From contig MEUA01000023.1 in assembly GCA_001771505.1 (NCBI GenBank), positions 2,346 to 66,345 of the forward strand: a stretch of DNA of 64,000 nucleotides, written 5' to 3'. The notes under the pieces were generated by a model that was not told the DNA's origin, searched no databases, and worked only from the letters and a program-made list of their open reading frames with translations. Made by a program: the position numbers and the translations under genes. The DNA is from a candidate division WOR-1 bacterium RIFOXYB2_FULL_36_35. GTDB taxonomy: Bacteria; Margulisbacteria; WOR-1; XYC2-FULL-46-14; XYC2-FULL-37-10. Position 1 is the first letter of the stretch. Each line of letters starts with the position of its first letter. Shown in pieces: positions 2,800 to 64,000 of this stretch.

Positions 2800-2991
2800 A
2801 TGGCAAAAAAGTGTTTCATATGCGAAAAAAAACCTGGGAGCGGCGAAAATGTAAGCCACAGCAACAAAAAAACAAAACGCCGCTGGCTGCCAAACCTTCA
2901 AAAAATTCGAATCATGGTGGATGGCAAAAAGTGTACTGAGTACGTTTGTACAAAGTGTATAAAAGCCGACAAGATCAAAAAAGCCGCATAA
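2800..2991 (+). CDS. rpmB: 50S ribosomal protein L28 (zinc-ribbon variant)
   Basis: 63 aa; 'VSHSNKKTKRRWLPNL' matches the L28 core; CxxC...CxxC. Confidence 0.8.
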   Translation: MAKKCFICEKKPGSGENVSHSNKKTKRRWLPNLQKIRIMVDGKKCTEYVCTKCIKADKIKKAA

Positions 2992-3012
2992 ATCTCTCTT
3001 ATTTTAAAACAA

Positions 3013-3048
3013 AAGCCCTTTCCACAAACTTAATCATAGAAAGGGCTT
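3013..3048. terminator. Hairpin terminator between convergent rpmB and the RRM gene
   Basis: 10-bp stem AAGCCCTTTC/GAAAGGGCTT with 16-nt loop; U-rich tract follows on the minus-strand transcript. Confidence 0.5.
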
Positions 3049-3072
3049 AGGTGAAAAATTAATCCACCCTAG

Positions 3073-3327
3073 TTAAAATATTTTTTCAGCTTTTGGACGT
3101 GCTTCGTTAACAGTGATTTCACGACCACCCAAAGAAAAACCATTCATTGCCTGAATTGCTTTGTCCATATCTTCATCATTAACATCAACAAAAGCAAATC
3201 CGCGAGAACGGCCATCTCGAGAGACAACCCTAGCACTAATAACAGAGCAAACCTCACCAAACTTAGCCTCTAACTCCTCTGAAGTTACAGACCAGGGTAA
3301 ATTCCCTACGAACAAACTCTTAGCCAT
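3073..3327 (-). CDS. RRM-type RNA-binding protein
   Basis: RNP2 'LFVGNL' and RNP1 'RGFAFVDV' motifs, 84 aa. Confidence 0.8.
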   Translation of the reverse strand: MAKSLFVGNLPWSVTSEELEAKFGEVCSVISARVVSRDGRSRGFAFVDVNDEDMDKAIQAMNGFSLGGREITVNEARPKAEKIF

Positions 3328-3540
3328 CTTTCACCTCTCTACATAAACAAAAACAAGGTATTTTACCTTGTCTCTAATGACGATATGCTATCATAAACCG
3401 ACAGCTACACGAAACATTAGCTCGACCTTCTTGATATAATAATAATATATCAATTTTATCATGTCAAACATTTTTGACGTTTTTGATATTCGACAGAAAA
3501 TTCCCGCAAATAGTCGTTTATAAGCTATAATTATTAATAT

Positions 3541-27707: not shown

Positions 27708-27806
27708 TTATTCATACCCCGAGTAATGTTTGACAATTTGTTGGTTATTGATTCTGACGTGAACCCCGATTATCCTAATCGGGGTGAATAATCGGGGTTA
27801 AATAAG
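27708..27806 (+). repeat. Palindromic repeat element copy F, TTGACA-spacer subtype
   Basis: Contains 60-nt block TGTTTGACAATTTGTTGGTTATTGATTCTGACGTGAACCCCGATTATCCTAATCGGGGT, identical except one base to 54832..54891. Confidence 0.85.
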
Positions 27807-28710
27807 GATTTTTTCTCGTAAAGTCTGGCATAAATTTAATTGTAAGCTGATGGGTTGTATCCAATTCGGAATGAGGGACAAAGGCATAGTCAAATTGAAT
27901 ATTTTTACTGATAAAACCAATGCCAAAAGATATAGACGAGTTATCTGTTTGTTTACTTGTTAGTCCGGATCTAACAAAGAAACTATCTTCAAAACTATAT
28001 TCAATGCCAAAATTTGCAAACATATTATCATCTGATGGCAAATTTAAATCAGCCGCAAAAAGAATATCGTCTAATTTGTAAGAATACCCAACTCCATAAT
28101 TTGATGGAATAGCGGTATTTCCCAAAGATCCTACAATATTTTTTAGTGTGATTCCAAAAGTTCCCTTTGCATTGGCGTTCCACAACATACCAAGGTCAAC
28201 ACCATAGCCGGAAGCATTACTTGTATCAATGGTGTCATTAATTAATTTAAAGCTGCCACCAAGAAACAAATTGTTTAAAACATTGCGCGCGTAGGAAGTT
28301 GCAATAACCAGACTTGCGGGAGAAAAAAATCTTCCTGTTCCTGTGGGATTTGTTGGCGTTGTCTCTTCAATTTGTCCCATGTTTACGTAGTCAACAGAAA
28401 GACCGAGTGTTGACTCCATGACAGGAGAAGAAAAGGCAAAGGATATATAGCTTATCCCCGCAAAATAGTTCATATAAGTTGATAAAATCTCAATTCTTTT
28501 TATTTGAGATAAACCTGAAGGATTCCAGAAAGTCGCGCTTGGATCATCTGAAACTCCAATAAAGGCGCCTCCCATGGCTGATGCTTTTGCATTCCCGTTT
28601 AATTTAAGATAATCTCCAGCAAAAGTTCCAGTTTGAGCGTTTACTCCTATGGAAATACTTTTCATAAAGAAAAGAAAGAACAATAGTAAAATTATTTTTT
28701 TTCTATTCAT
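27775..28710 (-). CDS. PorV/PorQ-family-like (FadL-fold) outer-membrane beta-barrel
   Basis: Signal peptide; N-terminal 'ASAMGGAFIGVSDDPSATFWNPSGL' FadL/PorV-type motif; aromatic C-terminus; directly downstream of a T9SS-type cargo gene. Confidence 0.55.
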   Translation of the reverse strand: MNRKKIILLLFFLFFMKSISIGVNAQTGTFAGDYLKLNGNAKASAMGGAFIGVSDDPSATFWNPSGLSQIKRIEILSTYMNYFAGISYISFAFSSPVMESTLGLSVDYVNMGQIEETTPTNPTGTGRFFSPASLVIATSYARNVLNNLFLGGSFKLINDTIDTSNASGYGVDLGMLWNANAKGTFGITLKNIVGSLGNTAIPSNYGVGYSYKLDDILFAADLNLPSDDNMFANFGIEYSFEDSFFVRSGLTSKQTDNSSISFGIGFISKNIQFDYAFVPHSELDTTHQLTIKFMPDFTRKNPYLTPIIHPD

Positions 28711-28774
28711 ACATTAATTTATAACTTACAAAGAATAATGCGTCGAAGCATTGGCATAATAAATAATTATTTTT

Positions 28775-30391
28775 TTAATCAATAATTGCAATTTTCCCTA
28801 TCTTTTTTACACCGGAACCTCCTATGAAATAAATATAAATGCCTCTTGTAACCCAAGCTCCTGATGAATTTTTACCGTTCCATGTCCAACTTGCCCCTCC
28901 GGTTAATGTCGTTGATGTTACAAGATTCCCTGAAAGCGTATATATACTTATTCTTTCGTCTCCCGACAAACCTTCAAAAACAACACCAGAAGAAGACCCT
29001 GCTGTGTATGGATTTGGATAAGCATATATCGTTTTAGTTGTCGATTCTTGGGTAGAAGAAGATCCAAAACTTAAAGCCGCATAGACGTTTATTTTGCCAG
29101 AGCCATAGTAAGGATCCCATCCCGCAGTTCCTAAATCATCAGCAGAGCTCACAATTTTATTTATAACCTGAGAGTTTGCCCATGTGGAATTTTGAGCAAA
29201 AATCAAGGAGGCCAACCCTGATACAAAAGGAGTTGACATAGAGGTTCCATAACTGTACGCATAAGCATTCCCTTTATAAGTGCTAAGTATATTGCCTGAA
29301 TTTGAACTCCCTCCATCTCCTCCCGGAGCGCAAACATCAACAGATTCATTATAAGTTGAAAAAGACGAACGGTTATTATCAGGACCTATTGAACCTACGC
29401 CTATAACATTTTCATAAGAAGCTGGATATTCAACTGTGGGATCTCCATCATTCCCCGCTGCGGCAACCAGAACACATCCTTTGTTATATGCGTATTGCAC
29501 AGCCTCATTCATACTATCAACAAATGAATATGATCCCAAACTCATGTTTATAACTTTTGCGCCGTTATCGGCTGCGTATCTTACCCCGTCTGCCGTAATA
29601 TCAACAAAACCCATACCTCTGAAATTAAGGACTCTGACAACCATAATTTTACTATTCCAAGAAACGCCAGCAACTCCCTTGCCGTTATTTGTCACTGCCG
29701 CGGCTATTCCGGAAACATGTGTACCATGGCCATCTAGATCTGAAGGATCATTGTCTGAGGCAAAAAAATCCCATCCTTCCCAATCATCTATATAACCGTT
29801 CCCGTCATCATCAATTCCGTTGTTTTTATTGCCAGCGCTCCCCTCAATAGGATTTATCCAGACCTTATCTTGCAAATCTTCATGGGTAAAATCTATACCG
29901 CTGTCAACAACAGCTATAATAACGTCAGAATTCCCTTTGGTTATATCCCAACCATCATTTGCATGAATTAAAGGCAATCCCCATTGTTCATAATAATATG
30001 GATCATTGGGCGTTACAGAAAGTTTGTATAAAGCAAAGTTTGGTTCCGCATATTCAATTAATGGATTTTTATTATAAGCATCTACTATGTCTTTGAGCGA
30101 AGAATTTTTGCTTTCGTCAGCAATCTTTAAGAGTTTTATTTTTTTATTGGAAAGTGTTCTAACAATTTTTAGGTTATTTTGAGAATTAAAAGTATTAATG
30201 GATTGTATAGAAATTAAATCCTTGTATTTTACCAATAACTCCCCTTTTGCAACATCAACATATCGTCTTATCCTTTTATCAAAAAACTTTTCTGTCTGTT
30301 TATTTTCATAAGAAAGATCGTCAGCGTAAGCAAAAGAAAACAAAACAGAGAAAAAACAAGATAATACAAAAAAAAATACTTTTATTTTCAT
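28775..30391 (-). CDS. Secreted subtilisin-like S8 serine peptidase with T9SS type-A C-terminal sorting domain
   Basis: D/H/S triad contexts 'AVVDSGID', 'HGTHVSG', 'GTSMSTP'; C-terminus 'YPNPYTAG...ISIYTLSGNLV...GIYIYFIGGSGVKKIGKIAIID'. Confidence 0.8.
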   Translation of the reverse strand: MKIKVFFFVLSCFFSVLFSFAYADDLSYENKQTEKFFDKRIRRYVDVAKGELLVKYKDLISIQSINTFNSQNNLKIVRTLSNKKIKLLKIADESKNSSLKDIVDAYNKNPLIEYAEPNFALYKLSVTPNDPYYYEQWGLPLIHANDGWDITKGNSDVIIAVVDSGIDFTHEDLQDKVWINPIEGSAGNKNNGIDDDGNGYIDDWEGWDFFASDNDPSDLDGHGTHVSGIAAAVTNNGKGVAGVSWNSKIMVVRVLNFRGMGFVDITADGVRYAADNGAKVINMSLGSYSFVDSMNEAVQYAYNKGCVLVAAAGNDGDPTVEYPASYENVIGVGSIGPDNNRSSFSTYNESVDVCAPGGDGGSSNSGNILSTYKGNAYAYSYGTSMSTPFVSGLASLIFAQNSTWANSQVINKIVSSADDLGTAGWDPYYGSGKINVYAALSFGSSSTQESTTKTIYAYPNPYTAGSSSGVVFEGLSGDERISIYTLSGNLVTSTTLTGGASWTWNGKNSSGAWVTRGIYIYFIGGSGVKKIGKIAIID

Positions 30392-45367: not shown

Positions 45368-46897
45368 ATGGTTTTAAAAAAAGTAGTCTCTTTTAATTTA
45401 GAAAGAGTTGTGGAAAAAGAATCTGCCGCTATCTTGTTATCAGAGCTTGATAAGTTAGATACTACAGATTCTACATCGCTCAACAATTTTTTTGTAAGGA
45501 TCCAAAGATTTGGATTTCCTTTTACTAGAAGTTATTTTAATAGGATGCTTGAAGGAAGAGATTTAACGCCACTTAGAAGCATGCTTCAGAGGTTAATCCC
45601 AAAACCTAAAATTCCTCAACCGACAAGGATACTTCCTTTTGATCCAAGGGATAGAGATACACAAAGAGATATCAGGCAGAAATTTATGGGTATATTAGGC
45701 GATGCAACATTTTATGATGCTATTTTAAGAAGAATTACCCCTGCTTCTATGGACAGAAAAAAAGAAACTAATTCTTTTGAAATTAACACAAAAGCTATCA
45801 TAGAAGAATTAAATAGGCAAGGTAATGATAAATTGGCTGATGCACTTAAGTATGCAGCAATATTTTTGACTCCTGATAGGGAGGATTTAAAAAGATACGT
45901 TGTTGACCATGGCCTTCTAACTGTTGAGGAACTAGATAGGAAGACCTATATAGGAAAGTGCCTTTATGAAGATTGTTTGAGAATATCAACTACAGAAGAG
46001 GCAATAAATATTATAATGACAGAGCTTTGTAATATTTTTGGAAAGAGAGAGTATGTAGAGACAATGCTATTTGCTCATAACATTAATAGCTCATTCATTA
46101 ATTTTAATTCATCTCCGATGAAAATTGCCGAACAATTTGCAACAATGGCAATCCAATCAGGCAAATTACTGAAAATACTGGAAGGATTAAAAGAAATGTA
46201 CCGGGGAAACACAGTTTTAAATAGTTTGTATACTCAATTTAAAGATTTGACTTCAGTTTCAGATTCTCAACCCCGAAGAATACTCCCTTTTGATACAAGG
46301 GATAGAGCTACTAGAATAGAAATAAGAAAAAAATTTATGGATATATTTAGCGATGAAATTTATTTCAACGCAATTTTTAGAAGATTAGCTCCACATCTCC
46401 TTGGCAGGATAGAAAGTGATGTATCAAAAGAAGTTATAGCTAACGATGTAATAACTAAATTAGAAAATGACCTGATTGTCGCGCTCAGATACACCGCAGT
46501 TTTTTTACTCCCTTACAGGCAAGACTTGAGAAATTATCTCCTAGACCACGGGATTCTTACTGAAAGTGATTTGAATCGGTCAAATGTTATAGGACAAACG
46601 TTTTATGAAAGTTGCCTTAGAATCTTAAGAGCAAATGAGGCAATAAATATTATAATGATAGAATTTCCTAATATCTTTGGAAATGAAAATACGGTTAGGC
46701 AACTAGCAGCAAAGATCGGACTTACTTTAAACTTTAACGTAAACCAAGCTCCTATGGAAGTTGCAGCAAAGTTTGCAGAAGAAGCGTGGAACCAAGATAA
46801 ATTGCCAAATTTACTTATAGAGGCAGTAAAAGAAAATCCTGACAATCAAAAGTTAGCAGATTTATCAAGACAGGTACAAAGTTTTAGATACAGATAA
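45368..46897 (+). CDS. Hypothetical protein: ~85 aa N-domain plus two tandem ~210 aa repeats
   Basis: Internal duplication (RILPFDPRDRDTQRDIRQKFM... vs RILPFDTRDRATRIEIRKKFM...); N-domain paralogous to the next gene. Confidence 0.5.
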   Translation: MVLKKVVSFNLERVVEKESAAILLSELDKLDTTDSTSLNNFFVRIQRFGFPFTRSYFNRMLEGRDLTPLRSMLQRLIPKPKIPQPTRILPFDPRDRDTQRDIRQKFMGILGDATFYDAILRRITPASMDRKKETNSFEINTKAIIEELNRQGNDKLADALKYAAIFLTPDREDLKRYVVDHGLLTVEELDRKTYIGKCLYEDCLRISTTEEAINIIMTELCNIFGKREYVETMLFAHNINSSFINFNSSPMKIAEQFATMAIQSGKLLKILEGLKEMYRGNTVLNSLYTQFKDLTSVSDSQPRRILPFDTRDRATRIEIRKKFMDIFSDEIYFNAIFRRLAPHLLGRIESDVSKEVIANDVITKLENDLIVALRYTAVFLLPYRQDLRNYLLDHGILTESDLNRSNVIGQTFYESCLRILRANEAINIIMIEFPNIFGNENTVRQLAAKIGLTLNFNVNQAPMEVAAKFAEEAWNQDKLPNLLIEAVKENPDNQKLADLSRQVQSFRYR

Positions 46898-50230: not shown

Positions 50231-52198
50231 TTAAACCTTTCGGCTTTTTATTAAAACGATAACGGCACTTAATCCTATCACAAGCCCCAAAATTATTCCA
50301 TTAAAAGACCTTACAACAGATACTATAACAGGAGTATGAATGTGACAGTAAGTATTCAAAAAAGATACAGGGCCAATTATCCCAATTGGCAAAAGGATTG
50401 GAAGCCATTTTGTTTTTCCTTTTAAAAATAAAAATGCAGAAACAATTAAAAAAGGATAACCAATCAAAAATTCTTTCGTTCGAGGCCTTATAACAAGCGC
50501 TTTTTCCATGAAAAGACGAAAAACTTTTTCCGCATGCGGGACAGGAAGCGTAAAGTTCCCTGATCTTGCTATAAAGATAAATAACACCCCAAGAGATGTA
50601 AGTCCCAATAAAATGATCCAGATAGGAATGGAAGCCTTGAATATGTTGAAAATTCTTTCTTTAGAGGCTTTTATGTCAAAACCATTTTCTGTTTTGAAAA
50701 AGAAATAAACCGCTGTTATTAAAACTGGAAGTACAAGGGCAATTTTTATCCCCATAAACACTTGTGATCCCATCATAAAAACAGTATTCGACAAAAGGCC
50801 AAGTATTAGAATAATGCCTAAAACTGTGCATATAATGACATTTAAAAAAATAAGAAGAATATCCAATAAAGTTTTTCCCCATCGTTGATCGATTGGTCTT
50901 TGATCTCTTGAAAATTGAGATATCACCGCATATGATGGAAATACTATCGCAGACAAAAGAGCTAAAATTTTTACTAAAATAAAATCTCCCAATTTCATTC
51001 CGATTATCGGCATTAAACCAACTGATATTATCAAAATAATCCAAGCTAGCCAACCTGAAATACAAATAAAATAATTCAATAAAAATAAAAATCCAATTAT
51101 CACCCCTACCCCAAGTAAAATAATTTGCCATCCCGAAGGTTCAAAATTTACAGGCGCTGATGCTCTCCCTATATTAAAACCTGAGGTTTTTATCTTATTG
51201 TTTATGTAAGATATATAATTAAGATTATACAAAACAGGATCAGCAGCTTTAAGCTCGGGAGGAAAAAAAGGTCTAAGATAAAGGAGTCTAACCCCTCTTT
51301 CTTTAACAGCTCTAACCATCCTGTCTACCGCTTCTTCACTTGTTAATTTTTTTATCTCATTTTTCGGAATGCTATGAACGCGAACAATATCTAACCCCAT
51401 CAGCTTTTTTAGCTTTGTATCACCCTCTTGTTTTATTATTTCTATATTTCCATATTTTATGTTATTTGCTTTTAAAGCTTTTGACAAAGAAACGATGCAA
51501 TCAGGGGCTCCCGCGATATCTTCTCCGTCAAATATTATGGTATCAAATTTCTTAAGCAAATTTACTTTATGAATAATTCTGTTGTTTGTGTACCTTGAGT
51601 CATTCCATATCCTCGGGATAATTCTAAAACCTTTTTCCTTTATTTCTTTTTCCAGGGTTTCTGAAAATCCTATCCCGACCTCATCAAGAGCTGCCTCTTT
51701 CTGGTTAAGAAGCAGGGTATTTTTTGAAACAATCTTCCCCACTCCTGAATCGGTTATTGTCGAAATATTGTCCGCTATCCTATTTAAAATACCAGCGTTT
51801 TTAGCAATTAAAAAAGTTTGTTCTTTTTCAACTTTTCTTTCTTTCACAAGTTTTGAGATTTTAGGGCTTTCGGTAGGATTGTTTTTCAAGCCTTGTCCTG
51901 TTACATAATAAATTTCTCCGTTTATGTTTGCCTGGGGCAAAGTCTCCTCTTTTATCCCTATGGATATAATCCCTCTTTTTTTTATTTCTGTTAAAAGGTT
52001 ATCGAGTGAAACTGTTTTATGCTCCTCATTTTTAATTGAAGACAAAACCATTAAATCATCATAATCCATTACAAGCTCAACTGTTTTGCTAGATGATTCT
52101 ATGTTGTGTCGCACAAAAACAAGGTAAGAACCCGTTAAAATAGCTATTGCTAAGATTATTAATAATAGGACTTTTGTTAGTTTGTTCATTTTTTTCAC
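50231..52198 (-). CDS. Large polytopic membrane protein (possibly DUF5693-like, csaB-associated)
   Basis: 655 aa; N-terminal periplasmic-looking domain plus >10 TM helices; gene immediately upstream of csaB. Confidence 0.4.
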   Translation of the reverse strand: MKKMNKLTKVLLLIILAIAILTGSYLVFVRHNIESSSKTVELVMDYDDLMVLSSIKNEEHKTVSLDNLLTEIKKRGIISIGIKEETLPQANINGEIYYVTGQGLKNNPTESPKISKLVKERKVEKEQTFLIAKNAGILNRIADNISTITDSGVGKIVSKNTLLLNQKEAALDEVGIGFSETLEKEIKEKGFRIIPRIWNDSRYTNNRIIHKVNLLKKFDTIIFDGEDIAGAPDCIVSLSKALKANNIKYGNIEIIKQEGDTKLKKLMGLDIVRVHSIPKNEIKKLTSEEAVDRMVRAVKERGVRLLYLRPFFPPELKAADPVLYNLNYISYINNKIKTSGFNIGRASAPVNFEPSGWQIILLGVGVIIGFLFLLNYFICISGWLAWIILIISVGLMPIIGMKLGDFILVKILALLSAIVFPSYAVISQFSRDQRPIDQRWGKTLLDILLIFLNVIICTVLGIILILGLLSNTVFMMGSQVFMGIKIALVLPVLITAVYFFFKTENGFDIKASKERIFNIFKASIPIWIILLGLTSLGVLFIFIARSGNFTLPVPHAEKVFRLFMEKALVIRPRTKEFLIGYPFLIVSAFLFLKGKTKWLPILLPIGIIGPVSFLNTYCHIHTPVIVSVVRSFNGIILGLVIGLSAVIVLIKSRKV

Positions 52199-59687: not shown

Positions 59688-59775
59688 CCCCGATTATTCA
59701 TAGACGAACAGAATTTTAGCAGAGTGTTGGAAATTTTCCCAGGTATGAACCCCGATTTTCTAATCGGGGTTCATA
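59688..59775 (-). repeat. Palindromic repeat element copy M, long subtype, reverse orientation
   Basis: Reverse complement matches copies A/B/H including CTAGAATTCTGTTCGTCTAT. Confidence 0.85.
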
Positions 59776-59871: not shown

Positions 59872-60840
59872 TTACCATTTTCCTATAAGTGATATTCTAT
59901 GTACATTTTCCATACTTAGAGACGTTTGGCCAACATACGCATAATCCAGTTGAGTGGTAAAATATTCATTGTTTTTTGCTGAAAATCCAATCCCGCCCGT
60001 AAAGGATGAGGTTTCCAGCCAGCCCATTCTTAGCGCTAAAAGATTATTTTTCCATTCATAACCAAACGACAGTTCTGCAGGATATTTTCGGGATATTTTC
60101 TGAGAAAGATCAAACGCAAAAATAGATCCTTCAGGTAAAATGTTTAAATTTTCTAAAGCTATTCCCAGTTTTAATTTGGGGATGCTTTTTTCTGTTGTGC
60201 CTGTCCCCCATTTTTGTTCGTTTAAAAGATCTTCTAGTGTAAAGCCTATTTTTCCTATATTTTTACTATCGCTTATTAATTTATAAAGAAGTCCGGGCGT
60301 TACAGAAAATCCAGTAGCTTGCCCCTGGTTTACCGATGTCATATCAGACGTTAAATACTTGGCTGTTAATCCAACGCCAAAGCTGTTTGTTAATGGCAAT
60401 CCGTAAGACAAAAGATAAACATTACTAAAATAGGAAAAAATATTGGTAGTTATCACTTCATTAAAGGCGTCAGTCGTCGTCGTTTGTGTAATATCTCCCA
60501 AAGAAATTTGTATCCATGAAAGGCCCAGCGCGCCTTTTAAAAAAGGTGTTACATAGCTTATATAATAGTGATCCGCATCTGTGGACATTCGTGTTTGCAT
60601 TGATTGTAATTCGCTTGTTGTAATAAACGATAATCCTGCCGGATTATAATAAGAGGCATCAGAGTTGTCAGAAATTGCAGTAAAAGCGCATCCCATCCCA
60701 AGAGGCCGTGCGCCGACTTTTGCCGACAACACATCGATGTCCACGCCTCCCACTTCCGCCACAGACCCAACCGTTAACAGTGTACAGTTTACAGTGTACA
60801 GTAAAAACAAAAAGACAAAATACTTTAAAAATAATTTCAT
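59872..60840 (-). CDS. PorV/PorQ-family-like (FadL-fold) outer-membrane beta-barrel, second paralog
   Basis: 'AKVGARPLGMGCAFTAISDNSDASYYNPAGL' N-terminal motif; C-terminal aromatic; directly downstream of the large CTD-bearing protein. Confidence 0.55.
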   Translation of the reverse strand: MKLFLKYFVFLFLLYTVNCTLLTVGSVAEVGGVDIDVLSAKVGARPLGMGCAFTAISDNSDASYYNPAGLSFITTSELQSMQTRMSTDADHYYISYVTPFLKGALGLSWIQISLGDITQTTTTDAFNEVITTNIFSYFSNVYLLSYGLPLTNSFGVGLTAKYLTSDMTSVNQGQATGFSVTPGLLYKLISDSKNIGKIGFTLEDLLNEQKWGTGTTEKSIPKLKLGIALENLNILPEGSIFAFDLSQKISRKYPAELSFGYEWKNNLLALRMGWLETSSFTGGIGFSAKNNEYFTTQLDYAYVGQTSLSMENVHRISLIGKW

Positions 60841-60960
60841 AAAACAAAACCCCTTTTTATGTTTACAGTTTACTGTTTACCGTGTACAGTAAAAACACAA
60901 ATACAAAAAAACTTGCAAACAAATTTTATTGATTTACTGTAAACTGTACACTCTCTTTAT

Positions 60961-63900
60961 TTACTTGAGCAGCGCAATTTTCCCTCTTCCCGACACTGAT
61001 TGACCATTTAAGGTTGCTAGTACTTCAAACGGATAAATCCCGTTTATAACCATATCTCCTCTTGCGTTGCGACCGTCCCAAGGAACATCATTATACTTTT
61101 GCCAAATATTTGAAGCTTCTCCATATGGCAATCCGTCTAGTTCGACAACAAGCCTGCCTGTAATATCATAAATTCTGATACAAACATCATCGACATCCTT
61201 TCCAAGTTTGTATCTAATTTTTGTGCTTTCTTTGTTAGGATTAAACGGATTTGGATAATTTGTAATACCAGCCAATGTTAATGGGGGATCAACTTCAAAA
61301 GACCGGATATCAGAAGAAGCTTCTGTTGTTGTATTGGAGTCTGACACAACTTTCCAATACCATATCCCGCGAGAAAGGCCCTCATCAAATTCATGAATAG
61401 AGTAAGCAATTATAGGATCAGAAGTATTAATAGGAGTAGCCTCTGTTTGCGTAATAATTTTATCAAACGATCTTGAAGATATTTCAAGCAGGTTTGGCAT
61501 TTGGCTTAAAATCAATTTATAATTTTTTCTCCCTTTAATCCCCTGCCATTTGAAAGTAGGGCGAAGGGTTGTAACTATTGCACCGTCGTCAGGCGCAAGT
61601 AGAATTGGCTTTGTATTTTGCGCCAAAGCTTCGATAGATGAGATGAGTTTTACGTTATTTAAAGATGATGCTGTTACTGTCCCGTTAACGGAAGCAAAGT
61701 TTGATGGGATTTTTTGGAAGTAGATTTGATTTGCTCCGCTTCTTGTATCTTGCCATGATATGTAAGCATTGTTATATTGATCAACACAAATTGCTGGATT
61801 ATATCCTGACTGTCCAATCAAAATGGATGGAGAATTATTTCTTTTATAATAAATATTACCATCGCTTGCCCAAACTGAATGTTGCCCTGATGAAGTTGGG
61901 CCTGTTGTATAAGAATCTACTGTCAGAGGGGATGATGTAGCAGCTTCTTCTATGTTATCTTCATATTCGGGAGGACAAGTTTTTTGATATTCAAACAATT
62001 TAAAATCACTATATTCAATTCCTAAAGAAGCATAAGAAGTAGCAGCACTAGAACTGTACGCATCTTTTATAGAAATATAAAAAGTGTATTCCCCCTTGCT
62101 TAAAGAAACAGTTTCGTTTAAATTGTAAGAAGAAGTAGTCATATCTCCTGTCTCCCAAATGTTATTGTATTGATTATAAGAATAGAAAACCCCATTCACT
62201 AGTGAATTATTTCCCTGAACAAAAGCATAAGAAAATGCTGCATAAAGATTTTTTTCATATACATTTATCCCAGCAGAATTTTTTATGATATACCAAACTT
62301 CTCCACATTGAGGGGGAACCATTCCTACCTCCAGATAACCACTCATATTTAATTTGATTTGCTGGTCAGAATCAATATAAACAGTTAAGCTTTTATCGAT
62401 AAAAAACTCAGAAAATGAAAGGTTAGAAAAACTTTCTGTTTTTGATTGAATATCATTTCCATTTATCCAACTTAAAATTAAATTATTTCCACTTATTGTT
62501 AGAGAAGGACTCTCTCCAACTTCAATATACTGATCATCCTGTAAACTTGTGTCACAAGTCGTATTGCTCGAAAAATTTCCTACACTATCACTTGCCGTTA
62601 TCTTTAAGCGATAATTTCCTTCGTTGACATAATCTCCCGCGTTATTCATTCCTGTCCAATTAATAGAATAACTTGGATAACTTCCTGAAACAGGTAAATC
62701 TTTTATGAGTGTCCCGTCTGTTGTCTTTTCGATCCGTGCCGTTACTGCACCTATTCCAGAACCACCGCTATTATTTACACTAAAGCTCAACGATAATGAA
62801 TTTAAATATGGATTAAAAGTTTTATCCTCTGGCGGCGTAATACTCGGCGCCGTAATATCCCTCCAATAGTCCTTTTGCGTTGATTGAATATTCCCCGCCT
62901 CATCCCATCCTTTTACATACAAGGTTCTCATTCCCTCCCCGGGATGAGAGGTAGTTCCTGTAGCCGAAGTATTGCATCCTGTTGAATCGTCTGTCGGCAT
63001 ACTATCCCAACTCCATTTAAAACCTTTATAGCTTAAATTATCTGCCAATGAAACTGTGATAGCATTGTTTCCACTATACCAAACGTCCGGGGCTTGCCCT
63101 CCAAATGAGATCGTAGGAGCAGTAACATCTCTTTTATAGACTCTCGACTCTTCATATTTATTACCCGCCCAATCCCATGCTTTAAGATAAAGAGTCCTTT
63201 CTCCCTCCCCTGGATGATTATTTGTCCCTGTGGTTGATAAAATACACTCTGACGTATCATCTGAGGGAGGTGTATCCCAATTCCATTTAAAACCTTTTAA
63301 ATTAATATCGCTCAAATTTATATTTATCGCATTGTTCCCTGTATACCAAGTATTAGCCGCCTGTCCGCTCCATAAAACATCAACATTATCTGTATCTAAA
63401 ATAACGAAAGAAGAATACTCACCATAATTCCCTGCATTATCAACAAATTGCACATAAACTCGCTTCTCTCCATCGCCCGCCGTCAAATTCCACGACTTGG
63501 TAGAAGCTAAACTCTCCCAGTTATTCCAATTTGTGCCATCATTACTAAATCTCATCGTGTCTTCTATTCCGCTTAACATATCCGAATAGGTTAATGCAAG
63601 CGTAACCGAAGAAGAATTAATGTAATACTTGCCGCTATTGTAATTGGCAGAAGAAAATGTAACTTCTCCTGAAGGCTCTGTCCTGTCAACAATCGCTTCT
63701 CCCGCTACCTCAACATAATTTTCTGCAACATCCTTCACGTAAATTTTATAGGTATATTTTCCATCCTTATCTATCCCCTGGTTGCTCCACACATTGCTGT
63801 AAGAAGCATTGGAGGGCAGAGTTGCTGTTGATTGCAAACTTCCTGTCGCAACCCCATCGTTTGAAATATCGATATCCACTTCAACTGTGTTTAGATTATC

Positions 63901-64000
63901 ATTCACTGAATATGAAAGAAGGGTAGAATCCTTCACCCCTGAACCGTCTGGAGAAAAATAATACTCGCTTAAAATATTTTCAGAAACAGAAGGGAGAGTG
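60961..64000 (-). CDS. Very large secreted multi-domain (Ig-like/adhesin-like) protein with T9SS type-A C-terminal sorting domain; N-terminus truncated by the window edge
   Basis: Frame stays open from the annotated GTG (63936) to position 64000; internally repeated ~90-aa modules ('GFKWNWD..PSDD..HPGEG.RTLY.K.WD.AGN'); C-terminus 'YPNPFNPNKESTKIRY...IRIYDITGRLVVEL...WDGRNARGDMVINGIY'. Confidence 0.75.
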   Translation of the reverse strand, partial: TLPSVSENILSEYYFSPDGSGVKDSTLLSYSVNDNLNTVEVDIDISNDGVATGSLQSTATLPSNASYSNVWSNQGIDKDGKYTYKIYVKDVAENYVEVAGEAIVDRTEPSGEVTFSSANYNSGKYYINSSSVTLALTYSDMLSGIEDTMRFSNDGTNWNNWESLASTKSWNLTAGDGEKRVYVQFVDNAGNYGEYSSFVILDTDNVDVLWSGQAANTWYTGNNAININLSDINLKGFKWNWDTPPSDDTSECILSTTGTNNHPGEGERTLYLKAWDWAGNKYEESRVYKRDVTAPTISFGGQAPDVWYSGNNAITVSLADNLSYKGFKWSWDSMPTDDSTGCNTSATGTTSHPGEGMRTLYVKGWDEAGNIQSTQKDYWRDITAPSITPPEDKTFNPYLNSLSLSFSVNNSGGSGIGAVTARIEKTTDGTLIKDLPVSGSYPSYSINWTGMNNAGDYVNEGNYRLKITASDSVGNFSSNTTCDTSLQDDQYIEVGESPSLTISGNNLILSWINGNDIQSKTESFSNLSFSEFFIDKSLTVYIDSDQQIKLNMSGYLEVGMVPPQCGEVWYIIKNSAGINVYEKNLYAAFSYAFVQGNNSLVNGVFYSYNQYNNIWETGDMTTSSYNLNETVSLSKGEYTFYISIKDAYSSSAATSYASLGIEYSDFKLFEYQKTCPPEYEDNIEEAATSSPLTVDSYTTGPTSSGQHSVWASDGNIYYKRNNSPSILIGQSGYNPAICVDQYNNAYISWQDTRSGANQIYFQKIPSNFASVNGTVTASSLNNVKLISSIEALAQNTKPILLAPDDGAIVTTLRPTFKWQGIKGRKNYKLILSQMPNLLEISSRSFDKIITQTEATPINTSDPIIAYSIHEFDEGLSRGIWYWKVVSDSNTTTEASSDIRSFEVDPPLTLAGITNYPNPFNPNKESTKIRYKLGKDVDDVCIRIYDITGRLVVELDGLPYGEASNIWQKYNDVPWDGRNARGDMVINGIYPFEVLATLNGQSVSGRGKIALLK

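Follow-up and report, generated by a model that had tools for sequence, protein, structure and literature searches.

What role does an outer-membrane barrel play when its gene directly follows that of a giant repeat protein? The question is raised by the last part of the window, the whole stretch of 64,000 nucleotides that was analysed. Here, the 3' part of a gene for a giant, presumably secreted surface protein (60961..64000, minus strand) is followed on the same strand, after a 120-bp spacer, by a gene for an outer-membrane beta-barrel of the PorV/PorQ family (59872..60840, minus strand). We propose, with moderate confidence, that each of the two barrels of this kind in the window serves the C-terminal domain (CTD) of the protein encoded next to it as a dedicated carrier or anchor. 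The proposal draws on sequence comparisons, structural models and analogy with type IX secretion (T9SS).

The window holds at least 1012 codons of the giant gene plus its stop codon. The reading frame is stop-free to base 63999, and its 5' end lies outside the window. A database protein of 1678 amino acids (P0121) carries the window portion of the giant protein as its C-terminal part, with 1010 of 1012 residues identical and two substitutions. P0121 has no signal peptide and is therefore itself incomplete. Orthologues that match the giant protein over most of its length have 2856-3333+ amino acids in Margulisbacteria and are called at 3834-4027 amino acids in WOR-1 genomes, and Sec signal peptides are found on the complete ones. 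Since such orthologues range from 2856 to about 4000 amino acids, roughly two thirds of the giant gene would lie outside the window, and the full protein is probably a Sec-exported protein of about 3000-4000 amino acids. An earlier sequence-only reading had given the protein a putative adhesin-like character; in one complete orthologue, the N-terminal region contains an M23 peptidase domain and NHL repeats. That reading had also placed the N-terminus beyond the window edge and had described internal repeated Ig-like modules. The open frame and the longer orthologues bear out the former claim, and self-alignment of P0121 confirms the latter. When residues 874-960 of P0121 are aligned with residues 963-1050, the Smith-Waterman score is 272, against a shuffled-sequence maximum of 46. 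Over 20 other pairs of segments reach 60-127. The two segments at 874-960 and 963-1050 are tandem Ig-like modules of about 88 amino acids (62848..63378, minus strand; residues 208-294 and 297-384 of the window protein).

Two further profile matches to the giant protein are weak. The OmpL47-type domain of NCBIfam scores 31.6 (cutoff 40) and Pfam Big_13 scores 24.6 (cutoff 27), both below cutoff. FlgD_ig (Pfam PF13860, cutoff 27) reaches 45.6 bits over the whole giant protein across two stretches. The best stretch in this whole-protein scan is an internal FlgD_ig-type Ig domain (62587..62754, minus strand; residues 395-450 in the numbering of a 991-aa ORF), which has a weak likeness to the CTD (alignment score 61). 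The CTD itself is preceded by an Ig/FN3-like domain with an RPTF.W ... WYWK motif (61279..61608, minus strand). In an AlphaFold model of the last 285 amino acids, which covers both domains, the pLDDT of this block is mostly 72-96. Its mean identity to orthologues is 36%.

The extreme C-terminal residues, about 105 in number (60964..61278, minus strand), form the CTD. It is modelled as an all-beta domain with pLDDT above 90, and PorU (6za2) is the first Foldseek match (E 1.4e-9). HMM comparisons agree with a beta-sandwich of the T9SS or FlgD-Ig type, which we propose as the barrel-binding signal. The isolated CTD (last 104 amino acids) passes FlgD_ig at 28.5-28.8 (cutoff 27). TIGR04183 (cutoff 23) gives a borderline 23.0-23.4 on the isolated CTD, with model positions 2-33 of 72 aligned, and 17.5 on the whole protein. 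PF18962 of Pfam gives 19.2-20.3 bits and the type B model CHU_C 16.4, both under their cutoff of 27. Thus, of the FlgD-Ig/T9SS type A assignment made from sequence alone, the FlgD-Ig part stands and the C-terminal sequence quoted for it is present, but the strict type A label is left with a borderline TIGR04183 score and a failed PF18962. When full-length T9SS models are aligned, the CTD finds its best local matches in the C-terminal CTD portions of PorU (model positions 999-1094 of 1095) and PorZ, and it resembles these two most. In the T9SS, PorU and PorZ are the two proteins that keep their CTDs, bound to PorV and PorQ, so this match counts in favor of a carrier or anchor (PMC10947112). The CTD is also exceptionally conserved. 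Its mean identity to orthologues is 68%, compared with 36% for the neighbouring domains and 53% for the barrel, and no other part of the giant protein is as conserved.

The barrel protein has 322 amino acids including a signal peptide. It passes the NCBIfam subfamily model of the PorV/PorQ family (NF033709, PorV_fam) at 95.9 (cutoff 90), as expected from its earlier description as a PorV/PorQ-like barrel. It falls far below the equivalog models for PorV (NF033710, 36.1; cutoff 250), PorQ (NF033711, 24.8; cutoff 220) and PorV2 (NF052325, 47.1; cutoff 325). The AlphaFold model (pLDDT 78.8, pTM 0.74) starts with a helix (residues 2-21), and its 15 strand segments by DSSP form a barrel. Flavobacterium johnsoniae PorV is its best structural match (8gl6_F, TMq 0.70, E 2.8e-11; 6h3i_F, TMq 0.67), at a sequence identity of about 16-17%. 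PorV is also the only match in a profile search of PDB sequences (E 2.4e-4). No match to PorP/SprF models was obtained in Pfam and NCBIfam scans. Pfam UPF0164 (PF03687) stops at 20.6 bits, just short of its cutoff of 21.4, and a precomputed match to this family is present on most close homologues of the barrel. Homologues at 49-70% identity come from Margulisbacteria, Saganbacteria and WOR-1.

A second barrel of the family is encoded at 27775..28710 (minus strand). It aligns with the barrel at 59872..60840 over 303 columns at 28% identity (E 2e-17), which substantiates the suggestion that the two are paralogues. Of the two barrels, this one is closer to PorQ. It passes NF033709 at 144.2, and its scores of 60.5, 111.6 and 91.3 for PorV, PorQ and PorV2 lie under the same equivalog cutoffs of 250, 220 and 325. 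The gene before it encodes an S8 subtilase (28775..30391, minus strand; Peptidase_S8, 198 bits) with a T9SS-type CTD that passes TIGR04183 at 26.4-30.2 and scores 54 bits against the CTD portion of PorZ. A CTD profile run across the 64 kb finds these two CTD ORFs only, each with a barrel directly downstream on the same strand. The window holds two pairs of CTD protein and barrel, which the sequence-only reading had called independent cargo and barrel pairs.

The giant gene and its barrel gene are a predicted two-gene operon. Among eight orthologous loci, an ORF scan gives a 4-bp overlap of the pair in five, and the overlap ATGA was read directly in L005 and L009. Such overlap of stop and start suggests co-production of both proteins. 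In the window, the spacer and the first 20 or so barrel codons carry a cluster of heptamer-type repeats, ACTGTAMAC (60780..60951, minus strand). Seven of the eight matches in the window fall within the cluster, and the expectation for the whole window is 0.44. The RNA of 60770-60965 on the minus strand has a predicted fold of -51.7 kcal/mol (z -4.27), which none of 200 shuffled sequences equals, and a predicted long stem encloses the ribosome-binding site and AUG of the barrel gene. About 100 nt past the barrel stop codon lies a perfect 12-bp hairpin, TGAACCCCGATT-agaa-AATCGGGGTTCA (59746..59773, minus strand), a possible sign that the operon ends there. It has no T-run and was therefore not called by the terminator scan.

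The pairing is conserved far beyond this genome. Each of the eight orthologous loci from Margulisbacteria encodes a giant CTD protein directly upstream of the barrel. Of 61 distant relatives of the barrel in other phyla, 27 have a same-strand gene for a CTD protein no more than 1 kb upstream (chance expectation about 0.74, binomial p 2e-35), and six more have one downstream. A modular strategy of cargo plus barrel, as had been suggested, is supported by these loci. The linkage is partial among the distant relatives, as a CTD neighbour was not detected within 1 kb in about 46% of them. Among 40 barrel-adjacent C-termini, 39 match the PorU CTD, 38 the PorZ CTD, 36 TIGR04183 and 36 FlgD_ig. A test for co-variation of cognate CTDs and barrels gives weak support, as 30 of 38 cases are concordant (Fisher p 0.03; p 0.14 after leaving out orthologues). 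Some related barrels in Margulisbacteria and Saganbacteria loci, which also come after CTD proteins, have SLH domains at their C-terminus. SLH domains bind the cell wall, and these relatives therefore fit an anchoring role for the barrel. The closest homologues and the orthologous loci belong to Margulisbacteria, Saganbacteria and WOR-1, not to Bacteroidota. By sequence and model, the pair resembles the carrier and cargo part of the Bacteroidota T9SS and recurs in many phyla where a T9SS is not described.

In the proposed mechanism, the giant protein with its Ig modules, which ends in the beta-sandwich CTD of about 105 amino acids, would be exported by Sec. The second gene encodes an outer-membrane barrel of the FadL/PorV fold and PorV/PorQ family. 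We infer a physical interaction of the two, in which the extracellular loops of the barrel would bind the CTD. The CTD would be retained uncleaved and, once bound, would hold the giant protein exposed on the cell surface. A further pair, built alike but independent, would be the S8 protease with its barrel (27775..30391). The passage of a protein of more than 3000 amino acids across the outer membrane is left unexplained by this model.

As an alternative, a conventional T9SS could operate in the organism. A complete set (the SprA/Sov translocon, PorK/L/M/N, PorU and PorZ) would then be encoded elsewhere in the genome, the barrels would be general PorV/PorQ components, the CTD proteins would be ordinary type A cargo, and the genes would lie together for convenience of order and not as dedicated pairs. 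Both families, that of the CTD and that of the barrel, are T9SS families, and for relatives in Margulisbacteria the names 'PorV/PorQ family protein' and 'T9SS type A sorting domain-containing protein' are already in use at NCBI. However, the wide margin by which the PorV, PorQ and PorV2 equivalog models are missed and the absence of T9SS core families among the 24 window ORFs scanned make this distinctly unlikely. In addition, the layout of one cargo and one barrel, the ATGA overlaps and the conservation in eight of eight loci argue for dedicated partners rather than general components. In the literature consulted, the T9SS is treated as a system of Bacteroidota or the FCB group (PMC12635249, PMC12398890), and our literature search found no paper that mentions Margulisbacteria together with type IX secretion. 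Since the organism is Margulisbacteria-like, the T9SS vocabulary used here denotes resemblance, not established membership.

The flanks of the pair differ between genomes and the two genes are the only conserved unit, which would also suit self-sufficient two-partner export. Here, the PorV-like barrel, together with BAM and periplasmic chaperones, would export its neighbour, targeted through the CTD, and would then retain it, with no need for a T9SS translocon or motor. The pair occurs in many phyla without a known T9SS (Margulisbacteria, Poribacteria, Riflebacteria and others), and the stop/start overlap would again point to co-production. An analogous precedent may be seen in the Slam/type XI systems, in which a 14-stranded barrel exports a cargo that is encoded next to it and recognised through a C-terminal domain. 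We nevertheless consider such export unlikely. The modelled FadL-fold barrel with its N-terminal plug segment is narrow, nothing points to a channel function or an energy source, and where relatives have been studied, PorV acts as the carrier and SprA as the channel (PMC10994853). A FadL/TodX-type channel for hydrophobic small molecules, functionally unlinked to the giant protein, is very improbable. In its favour, the related UPF0164 family counts as FadL-like in Treponema pallidum, and the structural matches that follow PorV are FadL, TodX and TbuX, but the TMq of these three, about 0.55, is clearly exceeded by the 0.70 of PorV. Pfam Toluene_X (FadL/TodX, PF03349; cutoff 29.7) scores 15.6 bits on the barrel at 59872..60840 and 17.1 on that at 27775..28710, and the gene linkage specific to CTD proteins across phyla (p 2e-35) would have no explanation. 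Broader than the preferred reading of a dedicated carrier or anchor is a tentative idea to which we give some weight, although we doubt it. The pair would be a minimal module for surface display and secretion that works without a T9SS and is widespread outside Bacteroidota (again in Margulisbacteria, Poribacteria, Riflebacteria and others), the barrel alone receiving, exporting or anchoring the giant protein via the CTD. If true, such a module could be the ancestral core of the carrier and cargo step in the Bacteroidota T9SS.

Among known systems, UPF0164 proteins of T. pallidum are connected with the barrel by the PF03687 matches of most of its close homologues. These treponemal proteins are discussed as FadL-type importers, and the Spirochaetia loci retrieved (L029, L033 and L034) differ from the window in that no CTD protein adjoins the barrel. 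PorV of F. johnsoniae (PDB 6H3I, 8GL6) is the closest in structure, and its extracellular loops bind the CTD (PMC10994853). However, PorV docks on SprA and is the carrier of type A cargo in general, whereas the window barrels are apparently tied to one neighbouring cargo each. In this respect they are similar to the carriers of type B cargo. In the Bacteroidota pairs SprB-SprF and PG1035-PorP, the cargo stays bound to a dedicated, gene-linked PorP/SprF-like barrel that acts as carrier and surface anchor (PMC9143113, PMC12618676, PMC12635249), and as in the window, the genes are adjacent with one barrel per cargo. Unlike these pairs, the window has a type A/FlgD-Ig-like CTD and barrels of the PorV/PorQ rather than the PorP/SprF family. 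The Cys-X-Cys motif of SprF's C-terminal tail in the periplasm (PMC12635249) is in neither window barrel.

The T9SS attachment complex of Porphyromonas gingivalis contains sub-complexes of PorQ with PorZ and of PorV with PorU. PorQ holds PorZ and PorV holds PorU, and the CTDs are retained and act as anchors (PMC10947112). As in the window, a PorV/PorQ-family barrel is paired with a CTD surface protein, and both window CTDs match those of PorU and PorZ best. The correspondence extends to the more PorQ-like barrel at 27775..28710, whose partner has the more PorZ-like CTD. The window pairs differ in that the genes of the two partners adjoin each other, and the PorV, PorQ, PorU and PorZ equivalog cutoffs are all missed by far. 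In P. gingivalis the cargo is a sortase or an LPS-delivery protein; its counterpart in the window is either the giant protein with Ig repeats or the S8 protease.

The gene for the giant protein lies on the minus strand, ends at 60961 and reads without a stop codon as far as the final complete codon of the window at 63999, encoding at least 1012 residues within the window. Barrel 2 is encoded after a spacer of 120 bp on the same strand (59872..60840) and has 322 amino acids with a typical signal peptide. Its 3' neighbours are unrelated housekeeping genes for an MgtE-N/CBS protein and an Nramp transporter. The G+C content of the window is about 35%, and the presence of a gene for HldE, an LPS-heptose enzyme, fits a diderm organism. 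The window also encodes a 509-aa protein with a C-terminal Effector-associated domain 1 (EAD1; 45368..46897, plus strand) and a 655-aa protein with a full-length DUF5693 match of 484 bits (50231..52198, minus strand). The closest homologues of barrel 2 (49-70% identity) come from Margulisbacteria, Saganbacteria and WOR-1, as do fragments orthologous to the C-terminal 285 aa of the giant protein. Some of these homologues are named by NCBI as 'PorV/PorQ family protein' or 'T9SS type A sorting domain-containing protein', where T9SS is the type IX secretion system.

Barrel 2 scores 95.9 on the NCBIfam PorV/PorQ family model, against a curated cutoff of 90. It lies far below the equivalog cutoffs for PorV, PorQ and PorV2 and is sub-threshold for Pfam PorV, UPF0164 and Toluene_X. 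AlphaFold, using 28 homologues, models a closed beta-barrel whose N-terminus forms a short helical segment (pLDDT 78.8, pTM 0.74). The top Foldseek match of this model in the PDB is F. johnsoniae PorV (8gl6_F, TMq 0.70; 6h3i_F, 0.67). A FadL-type transporter was considered and rejected, since FadL, TodX and TbuX rank behind PorV at about 0.55 and Toluene_X stays below its threshold. When a sequence profile of barrel 2 is compared with PDB chains, PorV is the sole match (E 2.4e-4). The sequence-only reading had also called this barrel a paralogue of barrel 1 (27775..28710), and this holds at 28% identity (E 2e-17). Barrel 1 reaches 144 bits on the PorV/PorQ family model and is more PorQ-like than barrel 2. 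The superfamily is large: of 1.84 billion cluster representatives, 18,118 match the barrel profile at E ≤ 1e-3.

The proposed FlgD-Ig/T9SS type A C-terminal domain (CTD) of the giant protein is upheld in part. The isolated last 104 aa pass Pfam FlgD_ig (28.8, cutoff 27) and are borderline for TIGR04183 (23.4, cutoff 23), with only the N-terminal half of the latter model aligned. The whole giant protein reaches 17.5 on TIGR04183, below the same cutoff, and the isolated domain fails Pfam PF18962 (20.3, cutoff 27). In a comparison with full-length T9SS models, this CTD is locally most similar to the very C-terminal ends of PorU and PorZ, the two T9SS proteins with uncleaved CTDs, which are seated on PorV and PorQ (PMC10947112). 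The CTD of the S8 protease that accompanies barrel 1 (28775..30391, minus strand) resembles that of PorZ with 54 bits. The last 285 aa of the giant protein are modelled by AlphaFold with a pLDDT of 86.9, rising above 90 in the CTD. Foldseek places P. gingivalis PorU first for this model (E 1.4e-9) and PorZ 45th; since the model spans three domains, its TM-scores of about 0.3 are not informative. Across 29 orthologous fragments, mean identity is 68% in the CTD and 36% in the two preceding domains, and it is 53% in the barrel.

That the giant protein carries repeats and runs off the window edge is borne out. A blastp comparison of the protein against itself gave no off-diagonal matches, and repeats were detected instead by sliding Smith-Waterman windows with a shuffled control. 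Aligned with one another, two tandem modules of about 88 aa reach a score of 272; numerous weaker pairs reach 60-127, compared with a shuffle maximum of 46. An internal FlgD_ig domain exceeds the Pfam cutoff, and Big_13 and OmpL47-type Ig domains give sub-cutoff matches only. The database protein P0121 (1678 aa), from a near-identical strain, shows two substitutions over the 1012 shared residues, S386R and T859A. Its start has no signal peptide, which indicates that P0121 is incomplete and that the public gene model is truncated as well. Most of P0121 can be aligned, at 31-42% identity, with ORFs from Margulisbacteria that range from 2856 to over 3333 aa. In the ORF at locus L010, for instance, residues 1814-3329 correspond to residues 137-1678 of P0121. 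Independent gene calls in WOR-1 genomes give orthologues of 3834-4027 aa, and complete orthologues begin with Sec signal peptides. Judged from these sequences, the giant protein is probably 3000-4000 aa long, with roughly two thirds beyond the window. A complete orthologue of 3208 aa with a signal peptide (L006, 297..9923) carries an N-terminal Peptidase_M23 domain, NHL repeats, five FlgD_ig domains and Big_13. Given these domains, members of the family may bear enzymatic heads that degrade the cell wall, and their role may go beyond adhesion; the term 'adhesin' is a guess.

To examine gene neighbourhoods, 80 loci encoding barrel relatives were taken, and CTDs were sought with a profile iterated from the two CTDs of the window and then checked with curated models. 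In all eight orthologous loci with upstream sequence, a giant CTD protein is encoded directly upstream on the same strand. An ORF scan finds the two genes overlapping by 4 bp in five of the eight, and the overlap was read directly as ATGA in L005 and L009. Among 61 distant relatives, a CTD protein ends within 1 kb upstream in 27 and lies just downstream in six more; the loci are from Poribacteria, Riflebacteria, KSB1, Bacteroidota and others. At a background of 0.0115 CTD ORF ends per kb per strand, about 0.74 would be expected instead of 27 (binomial p 2e-35). The 40 barrel-adjacent C-termini match the CTDs of PorU (39/40) and PorZ (38/40), TIGR04183 (36/40) and FlgD_ig (36/40). Genes flanking the pair are not conserved between genomes. 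In the window, the CTD profile finds only two CTD ORFs, and each precedes a barrel. The observation of the sequence-only reading is confirmed, and its interpretation as a modular cargo-and-barrel strategy is supported. With the two pairs of the window as references, CTD and barrel types agree in 30 of 38 cases (p 0.03), weakening to p 0.14 without trivial orthologues, in a sample biased towards barrel-2-type loci; this is a weak indication of cognate CTD/barrel co-variation.

A conserved third gene was considered and rejected, as the intervening ORFs are unrelated and none is conserved across the set. Such ORFs separate the giant and barrel genes in some of the loci; they are small and helical-looking in two Margulisbacteria-type loci (L004, 9346..9870; L011, 9638..9994), glycine-rich and lipoprotein-like in Riflebacteria-type loci (L056, 8970..9704; L057, 9173..9886), and short, several and on both strands in a Poribacteria-type locus (L022, 7929..9692). 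One Poribacteria subgroup (L065, L066, L068, L075, L078 and L079) encodes CTD proteins of 543-1245 aa, sometimes two consecutively, immediately downstream of the barrel and not upstream. Another has a CTD protein of about 2090 aa ahead of the barrel.

Barrel relatives of about 650 aa in Margulisbacteria/Saganbacteria loci carry SLH domains. At L053 (9980..11914) and L032 (9833..11854), PorV/PorQ-like barrels are fused to a Glucodextran_B Ig domain and two to three C-terminal SLH domains. In both loci the gene immediately before the barrel encodes a CTD protein that has TIG, Big_5, cohesin or CBM11 domains. Cell-wall binding by SLH domains agrees with an anchoring role for the barrel, and by its domains a barrel of this type looks like an anchor tethered to peptidoglycan. 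Barrel ORFs of 607-672 aa also occur at L021, L027, L036, L038 and L047; the domain scan covered L053 and L032. L047 comes from an FCB-group MAG and the other four from Margulisbacteria/Saganbacteria/WOR-1 MAGs, and a CTD protein likewise precedes the long barrels of L027 and L047.

The region 60780..60951 (minus strand), which covers the spacer and the first 20 or so codons of barrel 2, contains seven of the window's eight ACTGTAMAC sites, with 0.44 expected in the whole window. They are arranged as tandem heptamers plus one inverted copy. A long RNA stem is predicted around the ribosome-binding site and AUG of barrel 2 (MFE -51.7 kcal/mol, z -4.27), and this modelled stem could act in translational control or in processing. 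Such an element cannot be present in orthologues whose giant and barrel genes overlap. About 100 nt past the barrel 2 stop, a GC-rich hairpin with a perfect 12-bp stem and no T-run was read by eye (59746..59773, minus strand) and may be a terminator or RNA-stability element. A terminator consensus scan downstream of barrel 2 found nothing convincing and missed this hairpin.

In the T9SS field, carrier barrels such as PorV, PorQ and SprF and CTD signals are regarded as parts of a large Bacteroidota-specific machine. The T9SS CTD binds extracellular loops of the carrier PorV (PMC10994853), and PorQ anchors PorZ via its uncleaved CTD (PMC10947112). It has been proposed that T9SS first evolved for loading carrier proteins with adhesins (PMC12635249). 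The carrier and CTD form a tightly gene-linked unit in Margulisbacteria and in several further phyla, and in some cases their stop and start codons overlap. This offers a comparative system for asking whether the carrier-CTD interaction is possible without translocon and motor. It also raises the questions of whether cognate specificity (PorQ-like barrel with PorZ-like CTD, PorV-like barrel with PorU-like CTD) is ancient, and of how proteins of 3000-4000 aa are displayed by uncultured bacteria with small genomes. For annotation, a PorV/PorQ-family barrel gene would predict a CTD-bearing surface protein immediately upstream. In the library of papers searched, none was relevant to T9SS or PorV-like systems of Margulisbacteria or of other phyla outside the Bacteroidota, and none connects Margulisbacteria with type IX secretion; a Trichoplax symbiont paper and a giant-gene preprint mention Margulisbacteria but not such a system.

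No T9SS core component was found among the 24 window ORFs scanned. A possible alternative is that the giant protein and the barrel make up a self-sufficient two-partner export system. Type B cargo remain bound to dedicated, gene-linked PorP/SprF-like carriers (PMC9143113, PMC12618676, PMC12635249), and with these systems the window pair shares one-cargo-one-carrier genetics. Its CTD, in contrast, is type-A-like and resembles those of PorU and PorZ, and its barrel belongs to the PorV/PorQ family. From this combination we propose that barrel 2 would serve as a dedicated carrier or anchor for the giant CTD protein encoded next to it.
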